From: an archaeon
Lineage (GTDB): Archaea > Aenigmatarchaeota > Aenigmatarchaeia > GW2011-AR5
Direction: 5' to 3'
Assembly: GCA_035290775.1 (NCBI GenBank)
Contig: DATDTP010000015.1
Coordinates: 1-29,427, forward strand
DNA length: 29,427 bases
The notes under the pieces were generated by a model. The model saw only the letters and a list, made by a program, of their open reading frames with translations. It was not told where the DNA came from and searched no databases. Positions 11,343 through 20,847 of the stretch are shown piece after piece (position 1 is the first letter of the stretch; each line of letters starts with the position of its first letter). The position numbers and the translations under genes were made by a program.

Positions 11343-12098
11343 TTACTTTGCTAATGCAGCGTCTATGGCGGTCTTGAAAGCGCTGTAAGGCTGTGCGCCT
11401 ACCAGCTTGACACCGTTCACAAAGAATGATGGTGTGCCGCTTACGCCATAAGATGATCCATCAGATATGTCTTTCTGGACTTCAGATGCGTATTTGCCTG
11501 AGCTTAGGCATGACTCAAACTGTGCCTTGCTTGCCCCTGCTGCCACTGCATATTCACTGAATTTTGCAGCTGCGGCTGTTGCGTCAAGATTTGACCATGC
11601 TGACTGAGTTTCAAACAGCTTGTCGTGCATCTGCCAGAATTTTCCCTGCTCGTCTGCACACTCTGAAGCTTCTGCCGCTTTCTGTGCATTTGGATGGAAG
11701 CCTAGAGGAAAGTCCCTGAACACTACTTTGACTTTTCCTGTGTCAACATAGTCTTTTCTTATTGACTGAAGAGTCTGCGTGTAGAATCTTTCACAGAACG
11801 GGCACTGGAAGTCTGAGAATTCTATTATTGTAACTTTTGCATTTGCCTGTCCTTCTACAGGGTCGTCGTCAGCAGAAACCTGTATTGCATCAGGTTGTGT
11901 AGGCTGCTGAGGAGCTGCGGGCGTAGGCTGTGCAACAACGTTTCCTGTTGTTGGTATGCCATTTACAGAACTGTTTCCTACGACATATCCGCCTGTAAAA
12001 GAAAATGCTATTGCTACAATAACAAGTGCTGCTAGCAATTTTGTATAGGTTGCTTTTCTTAATGTTATTGTTTCTCCTTTTATTGTCTCTCCGTCCAT
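11343..12098 (-). CDS. dsbA: Membrane-anchored DsbA/thioredoxin-fold oxidoreductase (paralog 1)
   Basis: EFSDFQCPFC active site, FRDFPL, cis-Pro GTPSFFVNG, GAQPY; N-terminal TM helix. Confidence 0.9.
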   Translation of the reverse strand: MDGETIKGETITLRKATYTKLLAALVIVAIAFSFTGGYVVGNSSVNGIPTTGNVVAQPTPAAPQQPTQPDAIQVSADDDPVEGQANAKVTIIEFSDFQCPFCERFYTQTLQSIRKDYVDTGKVKVVFRDFPLGFHPNAQKAAEASECADEQGKFWQMHDKLFETQSAWSNLDATAAAAKFSEYAVAAGASKAQFESCLSSGKYASEVQKDISDGSSYGVSGTPSFFVNGVKLVGAQPYSAFKTAIDAALAK

Positions 12099-14105: not shown

Positions 14106-14882
14106 CTACTTTGCCAATTCAGCATCTATTGTTTGCTTGAAAACGCTGTAAGGCTGTGCGCCTACCAGTTCCACCCCGTTTATGTAAAATGTCGGAGTGC
14201 CACTTACGCCATAAGATGCTCCATCAGCTTCGTCTTTCTGAACATTAGAGGCGTACTTGCCTGTGCTTAGGCATGTGTCGAACTGCGCCTTGTTTGCGCC
14301 TGCTGCCACTGCATATTCGCTGAATTTTGCAGCTGCAGATGTTGCATCAAGGTTTGACCAGTCTGCCTGAGTTTCAAACAGTGTGTCATGCATTTGCCAG
14401 AATTTTCCCTGTTCTTTTGCACATTCTGTTGCTTCTGCCGCCTTCTGAGCGTTCTGATGGAAGCCTAGAGGAAAATGCCTGAAAACAAGCTTGACTTTTC
14501 CTGTGTCAATATAATCTGCTTTTATTGATGGCAATGTCTGCGTGTAGAACCTTTCACAGAACGGGCACTGCATGTCTGAGAATTCTATTATCGTGACTTT
14601 TGCGTTGGCGTCGCCCAGCACAGGCCCGTTGCCTGCTGCTGCCTGGACAACCACCTGCTGTTGCTGTTCAGGTGCCTGATTGTCGTTTGGCTGTTGTGCG
14701 ACAACATTTGCGCCATTTACAGAACTGTTTCCTACGACATATCCGCCTGTAAAAGAGAATGCTATTGCAAGTATCACGAGAGAAGCGAGAAGCATTTTGA
14801 AGGTTGATTTTTTAATTGATACGCTTTCCTGTTTTTTTACGTGCTCTTCTTTTTTCAAATGACTTTGATTTTCTTCTGCCAT
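14106..14882 (-). CDS. dsbA: Membrane-anchored DsbA/thioredoxin-fold oxidoreductase (paralog 2), 258 aa
   Basis: EFSDMQCPFC, GTPTFYING; GGAGG RBS at 14892-14896 supports ATG 14882 (MAEENQ). Confidence 0.9.
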   Translation of the reverse strand: MAEENQSHLKKEEHVKKQESVSIKKSTFKMLLASLVILAIAFSFTGGYVVGNSSVNGANVVAQQPNDNQAPEQQQQVVVQAAAGNGPVLGDANAKVTIIEFSDMQCPFCERFYTQTLPSIKADYIDTGKVKLVFRHFPLGFHQNAQKAAEATECAKEQGKFWQMHDTLFETQADWSNLDATSAAAKFSEYAVAAGANKAQFDTCLSTGKYASNVQKDEADGASYGVSGTPTFYINGVELVGAQPYSVFKQTIDAELAK

Positions 14883-14923
14883 TATACAAAACCTCCGCCT
14901 TTGGCGGCATTCTGCTATAACCA

Positions 14924-15013
14924 TTACATAAATTGTAAACGTTATTATGAAGATGCAAGTATATAAAGTTATTTTATTTCTAGGGCAAAATAATTTGTTA
15001 CATAAATTGTAAA
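14924..15013. promoter_or_regulatory. Two identical 16-bp operators TTACATAAATTGTAAA (14924-14939, 14998-15013) between divergent dsbA and blaI
   Basis: Exact repeat; each is an inverted repeat TTACA-N5-TGTAA containing the TACA/TGTA half-sites known for BlaI/MecI/CopY. Confidence 0.75.
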
Positions 15014-15044: not shown

Positions 15045-15401
15045 ATGCAAAAAATAAAATTTGGAAAAAAGAGCGGCGTGCTTAGCCCGCTGGAAAACGA
15101 CATAATGCGCGTTTTATGGAAGAGCGGCGACATGAGAGTAAGGGAAGTGCAGAAAAAGCTCGGTAAAAATGTTCCGCTTACAAGCGTTGCCGTCCTTTTG
15201 GACAGGCTTCATTGTAAAAAGATTGTTTCCAGAAAAGTATCTACAGGCCAGGGCGGCAATCATTATATTTATTCGCCTTCGCTGACGCAGGAGAACTTTC
15301 AAAAGTCTATTGTAGAAGAGACTGTTGACAAGCTCATAGACGCCTTTGGCCCTGCTGCTGTCAGTTATTTTGACGAAAGGTTTAGAACCAAGAAAAGGTA
15401 A
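15045..15401 (+). CDS. blaI: BlaI/MecI/CopY-family repressor
   Basis: LSPLENDIMRVLW..VREV..TSVAVLLDRL..K..VSR..YIYSP pattern plus C-terminal dimerisation helices. Confidence 0.85.
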   Translation: MQKIKFGKKSGVLSPLENDIMRVLWKSGDMRVREVQKKLGKNVPLTSVAVLLDRLHCKKIVSRKVSTGQGGNHYIYSPSLTQENFQKSIVEETVDKLIDAFGPAAVSYFDERFRTKKR

Positions 15402-15406
15402 CCTAT

Positions 15407-16141
15407 ATGGTAGTTAATTTCAGCTCGCCTACATGTTTTGCAGAGTCTACTATTGCGAGCCCTGACATGTTTTTGATCTACGCGCTGTTCCTGTCTCTTG
15501 CATTTATTTCAGTAATAGCCATAAGAAAAACAAGCATGAGCAAAGCAAGAATAGGCCTGATTTATCTTCATCTTGCTTTCTTGTTCATGCCTTTGGCATT
15601 TTTGTCAACGAATACAGCATGCGGGCTTATGTGCTCAAGCTGCCACAACAACATGCCCTTGCTCTTCTTATATTCGCTGCCTATTGCTGTTCTAGGCGCA
15701 GCGTTTTTTGGCTTTGTAGGAATACCTGCGTTTTATGCAATGTCATCCAAGAGAATCAAGACAAGGTGGATAAATGATTTTGTAAAAAAGCATTCTGAAC
15801 TCATGAGCATTAAAGTGCGCGACGTGAGGCTTCTGAACAAGGCAAGCCCTGTTGCTTTTTCATTTCGCAGCCTGCGGTCTGGAATATTTTTATCAGTCGG
15901 AATGTTTGATGTCCTGAACAAAAAAGAAATAGAGGCTGTGCTGCTGCACGAGCTTGCCCACATAAAACGCATGTCTTCTGTCGGCAAGGTATCGCAAAAG
16001 CTTATGCTATTTTCCCCATTTTACAAGATTGCATCTTTCGGGCACTCCCGCGAGGAAGAAATTGCAGATGAGTTTGCAATCCAGGCACAAGGAACAAGCA
16101 TGCATATTAAAAATGCAAGGAAAAAATTTGACGCTTTCTAG
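15407..16141 (+). CDS. BlaR1/HtpX-like (M56/M48) membrane zinc protease
   Basis: Three N-terminal hydrophobic helices; AVLLHELAHI zinc motif; EEEIADEFA third ligand; directly follows blaI. Confidence 0.85.
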   Translation: MVVNFSSPTCFAESTIASPDMFLIYALFLSLAFISVIAIRKTSMSKARIGLIYLHLAFLFMPLAFLSTNTACGLMCSSCHNNMPLLFLYSLPIAVLGAAFFGFVGIPAFYAMSSKRIKTRWINDFVKKHSELMSIKVRDVRLLNKASPVAFSFRSLRSGIFLSVGMFDVLNKKEIEAVLLHELAHIKRMSSVGKVSQKLMLFSPFYKIASFGHSREEEIADEFAIQAQGTSMHIKNARKKFDAF

Positions 16142-16197: not shown

Positions 16198-16527
16198 ATG
16201 GATATTTCAGAAATGAAGATAGTTCTAAAAGGAATAGAATCGGTGACATTCAGCAAACACTTCAGCGAGGAAAAAGCAAAATTGAGAGGAATTACCGAGG
16301 AAGAGATAAAGGATAGCATCAACTCAAATCAAAAGCTTGTAGGCGTGGAAGATCAGGGCGAAGAACCAAAAGGTCACAAATATGCACTTTTGTTCAGCAA
16401 ATCGCGCAAGTATGATTTGAGAGTTGTAGTATCTTTAAAAGACAACAAGGTAAATGTTATTACTTCTCATATACAAAATGTAAAGAGGAGAAAGGGGTAT
16501 GAAAAATGGCTAGAAAAGCTAAAGTAG
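16198..16527 (+). CDS. DUF4258-like protein (putative toxin)
   Basis: FSKHFSEEKAKLRGITEEEI..VVV..VIT pattern; overlaps the following DUF2283-like gene. Confidence 0.65.
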   Translation: MDISEMKIVLKGIESVTFSKHFSEEKAKLRGITEEEIKDSINSNQKLVGVEDQGEEPKGHKYALLFSKSRKYDLRVVVSLKDNKVNVITSHIQNVKRRKGYEKWLEKLK

Positions 16528-16859
16528 ATTACGACGAGGAAAGTGACATATTGTGGGCGTATAGCGGTGAGAAGGTTAAAGATAGCCTTGAAATCGACAA
16601 TTTTGTTATTGATTTTTCTATTGATGATAAAATTGTAGGCGTGGAAATAATGAATGCCTCAGAAGTTATAAGCAAACTTTCATTAAACAAAATAAGCAAA
16701 GAAATGCTATCCGGCATAAAGGAAGCCAGTTTAAGTTTCTACCAGAGTAGAGAACTTTTCTATGTTGTCGTAGGACTTGTCATGGCTGTTGACAATATAG
16801 TAAGGGAAATACCTATACAAATTCCAGCGCCTAGATTTGCTATGATTATGCATGGATAA
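16506..16859 (+). CDS. DUF2283-like protein (putative antitoxin)
   Basis: VDYDEESDILWAY..IDFSIDDKIVGVEIMNAS is the DUF2283 pattern. Confidence 0.75.
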   Translation: MARKAKVDYDEESDILWAYSGEKVKDSLEIDNFVIDFSIDDKIVGVEIMNASEVISKLSLNKISKEMLSGIKEASLSFYQSRELFYVVVGLVMAVDNIVREIPIQIPAPRFAMIMHG

Positions 16860-16948: not shown

Positions 16949-17671
16949 CTAGATTACAGCATAGCCCAGCAAAAATAAAATTGCTACCAGCAACGGCTGG
17001 TGAACTATGTATATCAGCAGCGAATGACGGCCTAGGAATGCGACAGTTTTGTCAATAAACATATTGTGCACTGACTTTGATTTTTTAATGCAGTTGCCGA
17101 TAAAAATCCCTATGAACACAAAGCCCGACCACGGAAGCAACGGGAAATAATCAAACGTCTGGAAGTCAAAAGGCAGAAGCCATAACAGATGCGGCAATTC
17201 TGCCTGTATGTAGATCCCGGCTGTTATGATGGCTAATCCTATGAGCAGGCTCAATTTTTTGTATTTCAGGAAGAAGGAAGATATTATTATTGACAGTCCT
17301 ATCAAATGCAGAATGCCGAACCATATTGTATAATTCTGGTATGTGAGATATGTCACTGCAGTTATTCCCAATCCTAGCAAAAATATTTTCCCTCCACGCA
17401 GGAAATACTTTTTGAAAATGAATTTTAGCGGCTTGTATTTTATCTTTTCATGGCTCAGTGCAAGCGAAATGCCTGCTATTGTTATGAATGATGCGGCAAT
17501 AATACGCGGAAAAAGCCACCAATAAAGCCAGGTGTTGCTGAAAAGACTCATTGCATTTGTCGGACCGCCTTTTATTGCGCCGATAAAACTCAATGCAAAC
17601 GACCAGTTGAATATCACCATTAATACGATGGCTATTCCGCGCAATGCATCTAGCTGGAGTAGGCGTGGCAT
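16949..17671 (-). CDS. DUF1624/HGSNAT-like membrane acyltransferase
   Basis: RLLQLDALRGIAIVLM, GILHLIG, DYFPLLPW, LGRHSLLIYIVHQP; multi-TM. Confidence 0.8.
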   Translation of the reverse strand: MPRLLQLDALRGIAIVLMVIFNWSFALSFIGAIKGGPTNAMSLFSNTWLYWWLFPRIIAASFITIAGISLALSHEKIKYKPLKFIFKKYFLRGGKIFLLGLGITAVTYLTYQNYTIWFGILHLIGLSIIISSFFLKYKKLSLLIGLAIITAGIYIQAELPHLLWLLPFDFQTFDYFPLLPWSGFVFIGIFIGNCIKKSKSVHNMFIDKTVAFLGRHSLLIYIVHQPLLVAILFLLGYAVI

Positions 17672-17721
17672 GCTAAGTTATTTCTGTATTATTATTAATG
17701 CTTTTTTATTGTTATTTTGAT

Positions 17722-18243
17722 ATGAGCGACAGAATCACAAGACGAGAAGATTTAGAAGCTTATTTAGTTACAAATCTTAAAACATACCAAAAGTACGCAA
17801 GGCGGTTATGTCGCGATTTGTATACTTTCGATGATGCTCATGATGTCATGGGCCAGGCAGTTGTGAATGCGCTTCAGCGTTTTCGTGGCTGTAATGATGA
17901 AGAGCACTTAATATCATGGCTTTACACCGTTGTTAGAAATACTTTCATTGATTTTCACAGACGTGAACATAGACGTACATTTAACAGAGCTGATTTTGAT
18001 TATGGTATGGCAGATATAAATCACTCCATGGATGGACAAAACCAAGAGCTTGAAAAAAGAAGCCAAAAACTTAAAGATGCAATTTTTTTGCTGCCGAACA
18101 CTCTTCGTGACGTAATGATTTTGCGCATTTACGAAGAATTGAGCTACAATGAAATTGCTTCAAGGCTTTCTTTACCTTATCCTACTGTAGTGGGACGTGT
18201 ACAACGTGCAACTGTACGCTTATCAAAGAATATTAAAATATAA
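17722..18243 (+). CDS. ECF (sigma-24-like) sigma-70 factor homolog 1
   Basis: Region 2-like DAHDVMGQAVVNAL..SWLYTVVRNTFIDFHRR; region 4-like LPNTLRDVMILR..LSYNEIASRL; ATG 17722 preferred over 17698. Confidence 0.8.
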   Translation: MSDRITRREDLEAYLVTNLKTYQKYARRLCRDLYTFDDAHDVMGQAVVNALQRFRGCNDEEHLISWLYTVVRNTFIDFHRREHRRTFNRADFDYGMADINHSMDGQNQELEKRSQKLKDAIFLLPNTLRDVMILRIYEELSYNEIASRLSLPYPTVVGRVQRATVRLSKNIKI

Positions 18244-18245
18244 AA

Positions 18246-19025
18246 TCATTGGGCTGGCAGCGGGGACAAGTCAGGGTAACCTGATTTTGGTTTCACTTCT
18301 TTTACCTTTGGCTGCAGCCTGTTCAGCTCTTCCTTGAACAGGTTCATTATGACTAGGCTGACGAGAAATATGTCAAGATAGGTGTTTGTTAACATTAAGA
18401 TAATGGAAATTACCGCAGCGCCTGCCCCGAAAATATGCTGGGCTTTGCTTGGAAAAGGCGATGTTTTCGGCTCAAGAAGCATGAAAAATGCAAAGAACCA
18501 TGTTACAGGCTCTGCTGCTGATAGTATGTTTGCTGATGATGGGAATGCCAGCATATTTAATGCGATAAAAACGATGAGGAATGTAAATGACATGCGCAAC
18601 CGTCCGATTTTATAAGCTATGAATATGCCAAGCGGTATTATCAATGGTGAAGCTGCCCACCATGCTATTCCTGCGCCGAACAGCGACAAGATCAATGCTG
18701 CCAGCGCAGCAGGATTGAATATGTTGATATTTTTATGCCGTATGATGTGCTTAAAAAATATTGCAACCAAAGCTGCTGCTATTGAAAACACAATGCTCGG
18801 AGCTATCAAAACTGCAAGAATAAGGCCTGTTATTGCAGCTTCATCTAGTATAGGCTTTGACTTTCTGATTTTTGCCGCAGCAAATTCTGCTGCTACTGCT
18901 ATAATAGGCGTTAATATTATATGAACCAATGCGCCAGTAGAAAAATGAATTCCAAGGCCAACCAACAGTATTGCAGAGAGAAAGACAAGCATGTATGTCT
19001 TGACGTTTAATTTTAAAATATTCAT
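18246..19025 (-). CDS. RnfD/NqrB-like multi-pass membrane protein (short, orphan)
   Basis: AITGLILA, KHII..NIFNPAALA, FAFFMLLEPKTSP motifs. Confidence 0.75.
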   Translation of the reverse strand: MNILKLNVKTYMLVFLSAILLVGLGIHFSTGALVHIILTPIIAVAAEFAAAKIRKSKPILDEAAITGLILAVLIAPSIVFSIAAALVAIFFKHIIRHKNINIFNPAALAALILSLFGAGIAWWAASPLIIPLGIFIAYKIGRLRMSFTFLIVFIALNMLAFPSSANILSAAEPVTWFFAFFMLLEPKTSPFPSKAQHIFGAGAAVISIILMLTNTYLDIFLVSLVIMNLFKEELNRLQPKVKEVKPKSGYPDLSPLPAQ

Positions 19026-19087
19026 CTGTTATTAGTTTAACTCTGCATCTTATATTCTTTTTGTGCATTGAAAATTAGGTTTTGAAA

Positions 19088-19633
19088 ATGGCTACTGCTA
19101 GCGTAAAGGATTTTGAAATATATATGGAAAATAATATGCCTTACTTGAGGCGCATTGCATCAAACGTTACGGGCTACGGGCATGCAATTGAACCAGATGA
19201 TTTGCTTCAGGATGCAATATATAGCGCATTTAAAAGACTTGAAACGTATCGAGGCGGACCAAATGATTTCAAGCCTTGGATATCAAGAATTATTAGAAAT
19301 GCATACATTGACGCATACAGGAGGGCAACAAGAGAAGTCTGCACGCAGCCTATTAAAGAAGCGGCAGAAATACAATGTCGCCGCTTGTCTCCTTTTGACG
19401 TTTTTTCAAAAGAACAAAGTGGTGCAAGAATTATTGCTGTTATTGATGGGCTACCGGATAACCTTGCTGAGGCAGCGAGATTGCGTTTTATTGACGACCG
19501 CAAGTATATAGAAATTGCAGAAACACTGAAAATTCCAGAAGGCACTGTGAAAAGCAGAATTAGCAGGGCAAGAGAGCTTATTCGCAGAAATCTTTTGGAC
19601 AGCGACCCGAATCTGCTTAATTATGATTTTTGA
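19088..19633 (+). CDS. ECF (sigma-24-like) sigma-70 factor homolog 2
   Basis: DDLLQDAIYSAF..FKPWISRIIRNAYIDAYRR and LPDNLAEAARLRF..YIEIAETLKIPEGTVKSRISRARELIR; ATG 19088 after AGGT. Confidence 0.85.
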   Translation: MATASVKDFEIYMENNMPYLRRIASNVTGYGHAIEPDDLLQDAIYSAFKRLETYRGGPNDFKPWISRIIRNAYIDAYRRATREVCTQPIKEAAEIQCRRLSPFDVFSKEQSGARIIAVIDGLPDNLAEAARLRFIDDRKYIEIAETLKIPEGTVKSRISRARELIRRNLLDSDPNLLNYDF

Positions 19634-19887: not shown

Positions 19888-20847
19888 ATGAGCGAGTATG
19901 ATGTTATTGTAATCGGCGGGGGAGCTGCGGGCCTTACTGCGGCTATTTTTACAAGCAGGAGAAAACTCAGGACATTGGTTGTAAGCATAGACACAGGCGG
20001 GCAGACAAACTTGACAAACAAGATATCAAATTACCCCGGATTTCTGGAAAAAAGCGGGCCAAAGCTCATGGGTATTTTTAAAAAACAGGCAGAGTCTACA
20101 GGAACTGAATTTGTCAACGGAAGATTTTCTAAAATGGAGAAAAAAGGCGAAGGCAAGGACCAGAAGTTTACTGTTTACCTTACAAACGGCGAATCATATT
20201 CTGGCAGGGTTCTTATTCTTGCCTATGGAAAGGTGCCGCGTGCTTTGGGCATACCTGGCGAGGAAAAGTTTGTTGGCAGGGGCGTGTCTGTAAGCGCTGT
20301 GCAAGACGCGCCGCTTTATGCCGGCAAGTGCGTAGCTGTAATAGGCGGGGGCAATTCTGCGCTAGAGTCTGCAGAGCTTCTGGCAGAGCTTTGCTCAAAG
20401 GTTTATCTTGTCCACAGGCGCCAGGAATTCAGGGCAGAGGAGATAACTGTTGAGCGCGTAAGACAGAAGAAAAACGTACAGTTTGTGCTTGATTCTGTGC
20501 CTTTGGAAGTTATTGGCGATGAAAAAGTTGAAAAGCTCGTAATCGAGCATGTTGTCAGCAAAGATAGGGCAGAGCTTGCGGTAGACGGGGTTTTCATAGA
20601 CATAGGCTTTGTGACAGACACTTCTGCTGTGAAAGATTTTGTAAAGACAAACGAGGCAGGCGAAGTGTTTGTAAATGCCTTTTGCGAAACATCGTGCCAG
20701 GGCGTATTTGCTGCAGGCGACATTACAAACATACCTTACAAGCAGACAATCGTATCTGCCGGCAACGGCGCTACTGCAGGCCTTTCTGCTTATTCATATC
20801 TGCAGAAACTGGACGGCAAGTCTGTGGTAAAGATAGACTGGAGCTAG
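19888..20847 (+). CDS. Thioredoxin-reductase-fold FAD/NADPH oxidoreductase lacking CxxC (FNR-like?)
   Basis: GGGAAG FAD motif, GGGNSA and HRRQEFRA NADPH motifs, GVFAAGD; SAVQD in place of CxxCD. Confidence 0.85.
   Translation: MSEYDVIVIGGGAAGLTAAIFTSRRKLRTLVVSIDTGGQTNLTNKISNYPGFLEKSGPKLMGIFKKQAESTGTEFVNGRFSKMEKKGEGKDQKFTVYLTNGESYSGRVLILAYGKVPRALGIPGEEKFVGRGVSVSAVQDAPLYAGKCVAVIGGGNSALESAELLAELCSKVYLVHRRQEFRAEEITVERVRQKKNVQFVLDSVPLEVIGDEKVEKLVIEHVVSKDRAELAVDGVFIDIGFVTDTSAVKDFVKTNEAGEVFVNAFCETSCQGVFAAGDITNIPYKQTIVSAGNGATAGLSAYSYLQKLDGKSVVKIDWS

Follow-up and report, generated by a model that had tools for sequence, protein, structure and literature searches.

A DPANN archaeal protease-repressor pair with an outward-facing cysteine cluster: a candidate switch for copper or thiol stress in the envelope

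What can a BlaR1-class membrane protease sense when it carries no sensor domain, and which genes would it control? This question is raised by a stretch of 29,427 nucleotides (nt) on contig DATDTP010000015.1 (hereafter, the window), part of a DPANN-type archaeal genome of 706 kb (82 contigs, 78% complete), in which a gene for a BlaR/HtpX-like protease follows a gene for a BlaI-type repressor (blaI), the two being divergent from dsbA2, a gene of the dsbA type. What is known of BlaR1-type signalling comes mostly from beta-lactam resistance, and DPANN archaea cannot be cultivated alone; the gene pairing, the topology, the conservation of cysteines and operators and the content of the regulon were here determined by computation. 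The original prediction held that a cysteine loop of the protease senses the disulfide or metal status of the envelope and thereby derepresses dsbA, and the observation behind it proved to be real. We favor, at roughly even chances, the joint proposal that the pair is a regulated-proteolysis switch of DPANN archaea resembling the cyanobacterial PetR/PetP system, and that its extracytoplasmic cysteines sense copper or copper-driven thiol stress. Literature searches returned no paper on a BlaR-like sensor that is archaeal or has a Cys loop.

The stretch ACGLMCSSCHNN, which contains the cysteine loop, was present in the 244-amino-acid (aa) open reading frame (ORF) of the protease exactly where it had been reported (Table 1). 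The residue positions and the Pfam matches agree with a BlaR/HtpX-like protease bearing a C-x3-C-x2-C loop: Peptidase_M48 (PF01435) was matched with an E value of 1.1e-7 and 32.4 bits, above the cut-off of 20.3, and Peptidase_M56 (PF05569) with 3.5e-5 and 23.6 bits, below the cut-off of 31. The protein displays the HExxH plus downstream Glu zinc site on transmembrane (TM) helices that marks the M48/M56 gluzincin superfamily, and its Foldseek matches were ZMPSTE24, HtpX and BlaR1 (8EXR/8EXP). No further Pfam domain was found, and the 244-residue chain extends no further than the protease domain, leaving no room for a sensor domain; the penicillin-binding domain is thus absent, as had been noted. 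Pattern scans of genomes and metagenomes with HExxH words mostly returned bacterial M56 proteins, with 13 loci of the family among the matches listed, and the set of family loci used below was later built from a search of the phylum and from fetched regions. A word-based search yielded 116 homologs, all of them from DPANN archaea (the named sources being Aenigmarchaeota, Woesearchaeota, Micrarchaeota or Nanoarchaeota), and 86 full-length members were aligned. The residues H181, E182, H185, E217 and D221 are invariant in this alignment (86/86).

Three TM helices precede the protease domain. The AlphaFold2 (AF2) model (predicted local distance difference test, pLDDT, 92; predicted template modelling score, pTM, 0.83) has helices at residues 19-41, 45-74 and 83-113, and behind them the protease domain, whose C-terminal helices are short and polar. 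Across the 86 homologs, the mean number of lysines plus arginines is 0.12 in the N-terminus, 4.1 in loop 1, 0.17 in the Cys loop and 3.9 after TM3. As these charges are scarce in the N-terminus and the Cys loop and number about four in each of the two cytoplasmic segments, the N-terminus and the Cys loop are predicted to lie outside and the protease domain in the cytoplasm, with all four cysteines on the outer face. Three of these cysteines, C72, C76 and C79, belong to the TM2-TM3 loop (residues 68-83) and had been recognized in the original prediction, which overlooked the fourth, Cys10, and listed in addition a histidine, His80, that turned out to be variable. The protease holds no cysteine other than these four, all within 36 residues predicted to face outward, an arrangement with a chance probability of (36/244)^4, or about 5e-4; the clustering thus exceeds chance.

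The conservation of these residues is graded. C72 is found in all 86 aligned homologs, C79 in 85, C10 in 70 and C76 in 63, while position 80 is occupied by His in 20, Tyr in 24 and Ser in 10, and otherwise by Ala, Gln, Gly, Thr and others. All four cysteines occur together in 60 homologs, C10, C72 and C79 in five, and in another five an N-terminal CxxC accompanies C72 and C79, replacing C10 and C76.

A sister BlaR-like family (L232-L240, e.g., L234:1678-2433), with proteins of about 251-255 aa that match the window protease at an E value of about 1e-10 and PF01435 at 2e-6, bears on the role of the thiols. It is likewise paired with a PF03965 repressor; its TM2-TM3 loop is free of cysteines, and four are found instead in the outward N-terminus (CLYC-x9-SC-x3-C). 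Its neighbors are a divergent gene for a full-length Cys-rich protein of cluster 2 (described below) and, downstream, DsbA, followed by a triple thioredoxin (Trx3), CcdA and thioredoxin reductase (TrxR), and its operator, the related TTT(T/A)CA-N5-TGTAAAG, lies beside a TATA box. The recurrence of an outer cysteine cluster at another position among the same neighbors argues for a function of the cluster, and it is the strongest argument for thiols as the sensor.

The coupling of the protease to a BlaI-type repressor, also part of the original prediction, holds throughout the family. In the window, the two genes are separated by 5 nt, and blaI lies directly upstream of the protease gene in every one of the 43 family loci in which the contig reaches far enough, a pairing that is constant across DPANN orders. 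The term 'one-component-like' used earlier is accordingly a misnomer for what would be a two-protein system of regulated proteolysis. The best NCBIfam match of the repressor was CopY_TcrY (TIGR02698), with 33.9 bits against a cut-off of 121.95. The C-terminal CxCx4CxC Cu/Zn site of the CopY type is absent from the repressor, which in the window has a single cysteine (C57), and 23 of the 36 distinct orthologs have none at all; with no such site in the repressor, sensing must reside in the protease. The orthologs conserve a KLIDxFG..AV.YFNERF segment around F101, and BlaI and PetR are processed in the region corresponding to this segment (Garcia-Canas et al., bioRxiv 10.1101/2020.07.31.226407). 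As a separate observation, one locus (L086:3243-3524) retains, beside a divergent dsbA, no more than the last 92 residues of a protease homolog, and no blaI was detected there; this remnant may be a decayed copy of the switch.

Two identical palindromes, TTACATAAATTGTAA, stand 74 bp apart upstream of dsbA2 and blaI. At up to one mismatch, the window contains seven operator matches against 1.6 expected from shuffled sequences, and none of 100 shuffles reached seven. In most family loci, the motif TACA-N5-TGTA, often in two copies, precedes blaI by about 45-65 nt, and in a search that permitted spacings of 3 to 8 the spacing upstream of blaI was always N5. The earlier description of an operon divergent from dsbA with shared operators is therefore upheld, and the operators are conserved in relatives. 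In this genome, TTACA-N5-TGTAA occurs seven times at N5, compared with one to four times at other spacings. Within the same taxonomic family, 21 genomes with a strong protease ortholog contain on average 4.6 copies and 23 genomes without one 1.35 copies, in counts made by hand over related genomes that are not independent; a reversed-pattern control on the same genomes gave 1.1 and 1.3, respectively.

The position of the operator differs between the repressor and its targets. Upstream of blaI, it abuts a TATA-like box on the upstream side, that is, at the position of the transcription factor B recognition element (BRE), and in target promoters the TATA-like box comes first and the operator second, the site therefore covering the start region. 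The layout of dsbA2, with TATA-like box, operator and leader, is repeated in this genome at a cupredoxin gene on contig C30. Both layouts would be classical ones for archaeal repression. The leaders of these two genes (window 14883-14923, minus strand, and C30:13672-13706), which run from the operator to the start codon, are themselves nearly identical over 35-40 nt and contain a CCGCC-AAA-GGCGG hairpin overlapping a GGAGG ribosome-binding site; a third copy was not found in this genome, and the shared leader may reflect a recent duplication of the promoter or act as an element of translational control. The true start of dsbA2 is likely the ATG at 14882, 3' of the GGAGG. Its product reads as a membrane-anchored, DsbA-like thioredoxin-fold oxidoreductase with the active site CPFC.

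Five intergenic full sites, TTTACA-N5-TGTAAA, occur in this genome, each preceding a gene or gene set. Two belong to dsbA2 and blaI. The third, on contig C20, precedes a gene for a His-rich/Cys-rich protein, followed by genes for a 72-aa protein and Trx3; the fourth, on C30, precedes the gene for a membrane protein with a Cupredoxin_1 domain, located 70 nt after a P1B ATPase gene; and the fifth, on C65, precedes a divergent cupin/blue-copper protein pair. The P1B ATPase on C30 carries the motifs CPC, N-x6-YN-x4-P and M-x2-SS, which we take to be typical of Cu(I) pumps (CopA-type).

The regulon was extended to nine further genomes from five taxonomic families. There, blaI is preceded by an operator, as is the divergent cluster 2 gene for a Cys-rich protein, behind which come genes for a small protein, Trx3 and CcdA; operators also precede the pair clu4 and clu10, a TlpA/ResA-like redoxin gene and DsbA-like genes; in one genome (G024), an operator lies upstream of an operon whose last gene encodes a P1B ATPase. 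Within 5 kb on either side of the protease gene, 20 distinct loci contained genes for thiol oxidoreductases (Trx3, CcdA, DsbA, TlpA-like redoxin or TrxR) in 17 cases, cluster 2 in 13, clu4/clu10 in 13 and copper genes in seven, and every one of the 20 has genes of the thiol class, the copper class or both. The usual divergent partner is the Cys-rich protein without a Pfam domain, then Trx3 and CcdA. In one lineage (f38: G302, G291, G306, L004), the order is blaI, protease, Cupredoxin_1 and an HMA-HMA fusion, with a convergent P1B ATPase gene. The controlled and linked genes are thus dominated by extracytoplasmic thiol-disulfide oxidoreductases. A dsbA gene is adjacent in only about four of 43 loci, and to name dsbA as the target is too narrow; the output predicted from the operator-bearing genes is broader and includes copper proteins. 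The central proposal of the original prediction accordingly stands in part: the outward, conserved cysteines and the thiol-oxidoreductase regulon speak for it, but dsbA is not a conserved target and the regulon is wider, with copper genes.

The Cys-rich cluster 2 protein, the main divergent partner of the switch (C20 copy L196:205-1023; in relatives, e.g., L001:3929-5443 and L206:1887-3206), consists of a TM anchor and a C-terminal domain with invariant C169, C172, C173, C187, C189 and H191 (CxxCC...CGCxH), and longer forms have an extra membrane domain with CPxC and CxxC. Its 2155 homologs across DPANN phyla share 65-75% identity and are all annotated as 'hypothetical'; Pfam, NCBIfam and the ESM Atlas gave no family name, and the AF2 model (pLDDT 82) found no match in the PDB with Foldseek and matched unnamed entries only among the AlphaFold clusters. 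Clu4 (L203:7651-8427, L006:6969-7730) is a secreted protein of 250 aa with six cysteines and several HxH motifs, and clu10 (L203:8659-9114) is a small membrane protein with three cysteines; the two form an operator-controlled pair in several genomes, and neither obtained a family name or a lead from the Atlas. In addition, in other DPANN genomes, open frames of about 500-615 aa beside genes for CopA-type ATPases (e.g., G316:C27:1192-2160, G318:C7:13062-14033 and G336:C2:1059-2036) match both HMA and DsbD_TM, which suggests HMA-CcdA fusion proteins linking copper and thiol transfer.

Table 1. Coordinates of the switch genes, sites and residues, and of two neighboring genes, in the window
Feature	Position	Strand	Description
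dsbA2	ORF 14106-14924, likely 14106..14882	-	divergent; PF13462 E 5.5e-39, PF01323 E 3.1e-21
Operator 1	14924..14938	.	palindrome TTACATAAATTGTAA, between TATA-like box and dsbA2 leader
Operator 2	14998..15012	.	palindrome TTACATAAATTGTAA, directly upstream of TATA-like box of blaI
blaI	15045..15401	+	BlaI/CopY-family winged-helix repressor, 118 aa; Pfam PF03965 (Penicillinase_R) E 3.8e-17
Protease gene	15407..16141	+	244 aa, three-TM M48/M56 zinc metalloprotease, BlaR1/PetP-like, without sensor domain
Cys10 codon	15434..15436	+	predicted extracytoplasmic N-terminus
Cys72-x3-Cys76-x2-Cys79(-His80)	15620..15646	+	outer end of TM2 and TM2-TM3 loop
Cys72 codon	15620-15622	+	
Cys76 codon	15632-15634	+	
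Cys79 codon	15641-15643	+	
His80 codon	15644-15646	+	
HELAH motif	15947..15961	+	zinc-binding/catalytic; H181, E182, H185 (residues 181-185)
E217 codon	16055-16057		probable third zinc ligand
HGSNAT/DUF1624-type gene	16949..17671	-	membrane acyltransferase; PF07786 E 9e-54
Thioredoxin-reductase-like gene	19888..20847	+	flavoprotein; PF07992 E 2e-43; homologs close to the pair, e.g., in L002 and L015

How such a switch might work can be outlined. The BlaI-like repressor would bind TACA-N5-TGTA operators at archaeal promoters, at the BRE/TATA edge of its own operon and in the start region of the target genes. The putative sensor would consist of four thiols, Cys10 on an N-terminus of about 20 residues and Cys72, Cys76 and Cys79 on the short TM2-TM3 loop, these two segments being the only parts of the protease predicted to be extracytoplasmic. 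A thiol-reactive signal in the envelope would alter the packing of TM2 against TM3 and activate the protease; copper is the most likely candidate, and would act either as Cu(I) bound by the thiolates or as a catalyst of thiol oxidation. The activated protease would then cut the repressor near the conserved Phe101, derepressing dsbA2, the operon of the Cys-rich protein and Trx3 (together with CcdA in relatives), the cupredoxin genes beside the CopA ATPase, and the genes of the switch itself. Copper appears to be no less likely as the signal than disulfide status, because cupredoxins, HMA proteins and CopA-type ATPases are found in the regulon or its neighborhood and because PetP is copper-responsive.

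Several observations weigh against this copper-responsive proteolytic switch. The whole family is known from sequence, from which we infer repressor cleavage, DNA binding and the signal alike. In this genome, no operator was found upstream of copA at up to two mismatches, and 13 of the 86 homologs possess just C72 and C79, so that a fixed four-thiolate site is not universal. The link to thiol oxidoreductases is also stronger than that to copper (17 versus seven of the 20 loci). Among 371 genomes of the phylum, of which 51 have a strong protease ortholog, DsbD_TM/CcdA occurs in 37 of 51 with the protease and 51 of 320 without it, and HMA in 31 of 51 and 72 of 320, respectively, so that the odds for CcdA exceed those for HMA, in counts whose significance is overstated by kinship among the genomes. 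These figures favor the chief competing explanation, in which the oxidation state of the cysteines is set by the DsbA and thioredoxin-CcdA systems and reports the redox balance of the envelope in a homeostatic loop that involves no metal; the CxxC-type spacings, typical of redox motifs, are in keeping with it. We consider it a serious though unlikely alternative, as operators stand at cupredoxin genes in this genome, in one lineage the pair forms an operon together with cupredoxin and HMA genes, no thiol genes being in view, the only characterised homolog, PetP, senses copper, and three-Cys variants exist. It is also hard to separate from a copper sensor, since copper stress is itself thiol stress.

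The remaining explanations would deprive the cysteines, or the pairing, of a sensory role. If the cysteines were purely structural, forming disulfides or an extracytoplasmic Zn site that stabilizes the TM bundle, the signal would be sensed elsewhere, be it misfolding as for HtpX or a partner such as the Cys-rich neighbor; the best structural matches are indeed HtpX homologs, an even number of cysteines is commonest (four-Cys forms make up 65/86), and the nearby DsbA-type genes could simply serve the folding of the protease. This is improbable, for the cysteines are the only conserved features of the outer face and nothing else there could act as a sensor, the sister family retains four outer cysteines at different positions, and the three-Cys and two-Cys variants contradict fixed structural pairs. 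Far less credit is due to an ordinary HtpX-type quality-control protease that merely lies beside a BlaI-like gene and leaves the repressor unprocessed: HtpX accounts for the NCBIfam and Swiss-Prot fold matches, but with the equivalog models the protease reaches about 30 bits where 245-420 are required, its pairing with blaI never varies, and separate HtpX-like genes exist in the same genomes (weaker matches of the phylum search). Finally, the window sequence reads CSSCH, and C76-x2-C79-H80 had been offered as a possible haem-binding site; attachment of c-type haem, or a fixed Cys/His metal site, is nonetheless scarcely conceivable with His at position 80 in only 20 of the 86 homologs, and the haem site is ruled out on this ground.

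A more far-reaching version of the copper or thiol-stress switch is put forward tentatively, as possible rather than probable: the minimal thiol ectodomain of the DPANN proteases may be a direct receptor for copper, for another soft metal or for redox state, which would have arisen twice, in the TM2-TM3 loop and in the N-terminus of the sister family, and would represent the simplest known TM sensor of the BlaR1 class. Cluster 2 would then be its main target, and may be a missing copper-handling or disulfide-generating enzyme. In this archaeal family, a BlaR1-class receptor appears reduced to a handful of outward-facing cysteines, and the natural variants with four, three or two cysteines or a relocated cluster make the question of sensing directly testable. 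If true, the proposed switch would provide a tractable model for how PetP-type proteases sense copper and, for DPANN archaea, a first view at the level of a regulon of how envelope thiols and copper are kept in balance, and it would point to highly conserved, unnamed Cys-rich proteins as effectors.

Other genes of the window were also surveyed. In 14 of the 43 loci, the HGSNAT-like gene adjoins the protease gene, usually in the same orientation, and in relatives it lies directly 3' of the protease gene, whereas in the window a DUF4258/DUF2283 pair with a toxin-antitoxin-like look (16198-16859) is inserted between them. A gene for an RnfD-like membrane protein (18246-19025) recurs downstream of the switch in five of 43 loci. 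Two ORFs (17698-18243 and 19082-19633) with domains of sigma-70 region 2 and region 4, resembling extracytoplasmic function (ECF) sigma factors, were found in this otherwise archaeal genome. A second DsbA-like gene, dsbA1 (11343-12098), lies 2 kb from dsbA2, and the operator scan of the window found no box in front of it.

Among known systems, HtpX (M48B) has the closest catalytic-domain fold (TM-score about 0.6 to Swiss-Prot HtpX models) and the same HExxH...E active site. The protease differs from it in TM layout, in its obligate pairing with a repressor and in the conserved outer cysteine cluster, and it is no HtpX equivalog, the best model giving 29.7 bits where 275 are needed. The repressor and CopY/TcrY are members of one family and have in common a TACA...TGTA-type box and a copper-linked context, but the repressor lacks the CxCx4CxC site, most of its orthologs are free of cysteine, and its score is far below the CopY cut-off. 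In bacteria, copper-linked envelope thiol systems are represented by ScsABCD and by the requirement for DsbC/DsbD under copper stress. The resemblance to these is one of theme only, in that the predicted output joins DsbA-, thioredoxin- and CcdA/DsbD-like proteins with copper proteins; ScsABCD-type systems are under CpxAR-type or other regulators and not under a BlaI/BlaR-type switch.

The likeness to BlaI/BlaR1 and MecI/MecR1 of Staphylococcus aureus is closer, comprising a shared logic, in which a membrane zinc protease whose HExxH domain lies in the cytoplasm would inactivate a winged-helix repressor of TACA/TGTA palindromes, as well as the fold match to BlaR1 and a repressor Phe conserved near residue 101, as in BlaI/MecI. 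BlaR1 and MecR1, however, have a class D beta-lactamase-like penicillin-binding sensor domain at the C-terminus, after TM4. The protease of the window has neither this extracellular domain nor TM4, its operators have an N5 spacer, and the system is unrelated to antibiotics; since the sensor domain is lacking and the NCBIfam scores are far below the cut-offs (MecR1, 18.7 bits versus 1200; blaR1_generic, 14.3 versus 400), the protease is not a member of BlaR1/MecR1.

In described architecture and logic, PetR/PetP of Synechocystis sp. PCC 6803 appears to be the closest characterised system. PetP is the one BlaR homolog without a sensor domain to have been characterised; its TM2-TM3 loop spans about 14 residues, among them two conserved Met that are proposed to ligate copper, and a fourth TM helix is predicted at 256-278 (Garcia-Canas et al., bioRxiv 10.1101/2020.07.31.226407). 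PetR recognizes GAC-N5-GTC sites, has plastocyanin under its control in the petE/petJ switch (Garcia-Canas et al., bioRxiv 10.1101/2020.07.31.226407), and is degraded on the addition of copper (Garcia-Canas et al., bioRxiv 10.1101/2020.07.31.226407; PNAS 2021). Unlike this cyanobacterial pair, the DPANN archaeal proteases have three TM helices and no C-terminal TM4, with C72, C76, C79 and the N-terminal C10 in place of the two Met residues; the half-sites are TACA/TGTA instead of GAC/GTC, and the regulon is centred on thiol-disulfide oxidoreductases and Cys-rich proteins and not on a petE/petJ switch. Both systems nevertheless encode in one operon a BlaI/CopY-type regulator without the CopY metal site, followed by a sensor-less M48/M56 membrane protease. 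In both, a short outer TM2-TM3 loop carries conserved soft-metal ligands (at the same position, with another chemistry), 5 nt separate the half-sites of an inverted-repeat operator, and a blue copper protein is among the controlled genes.

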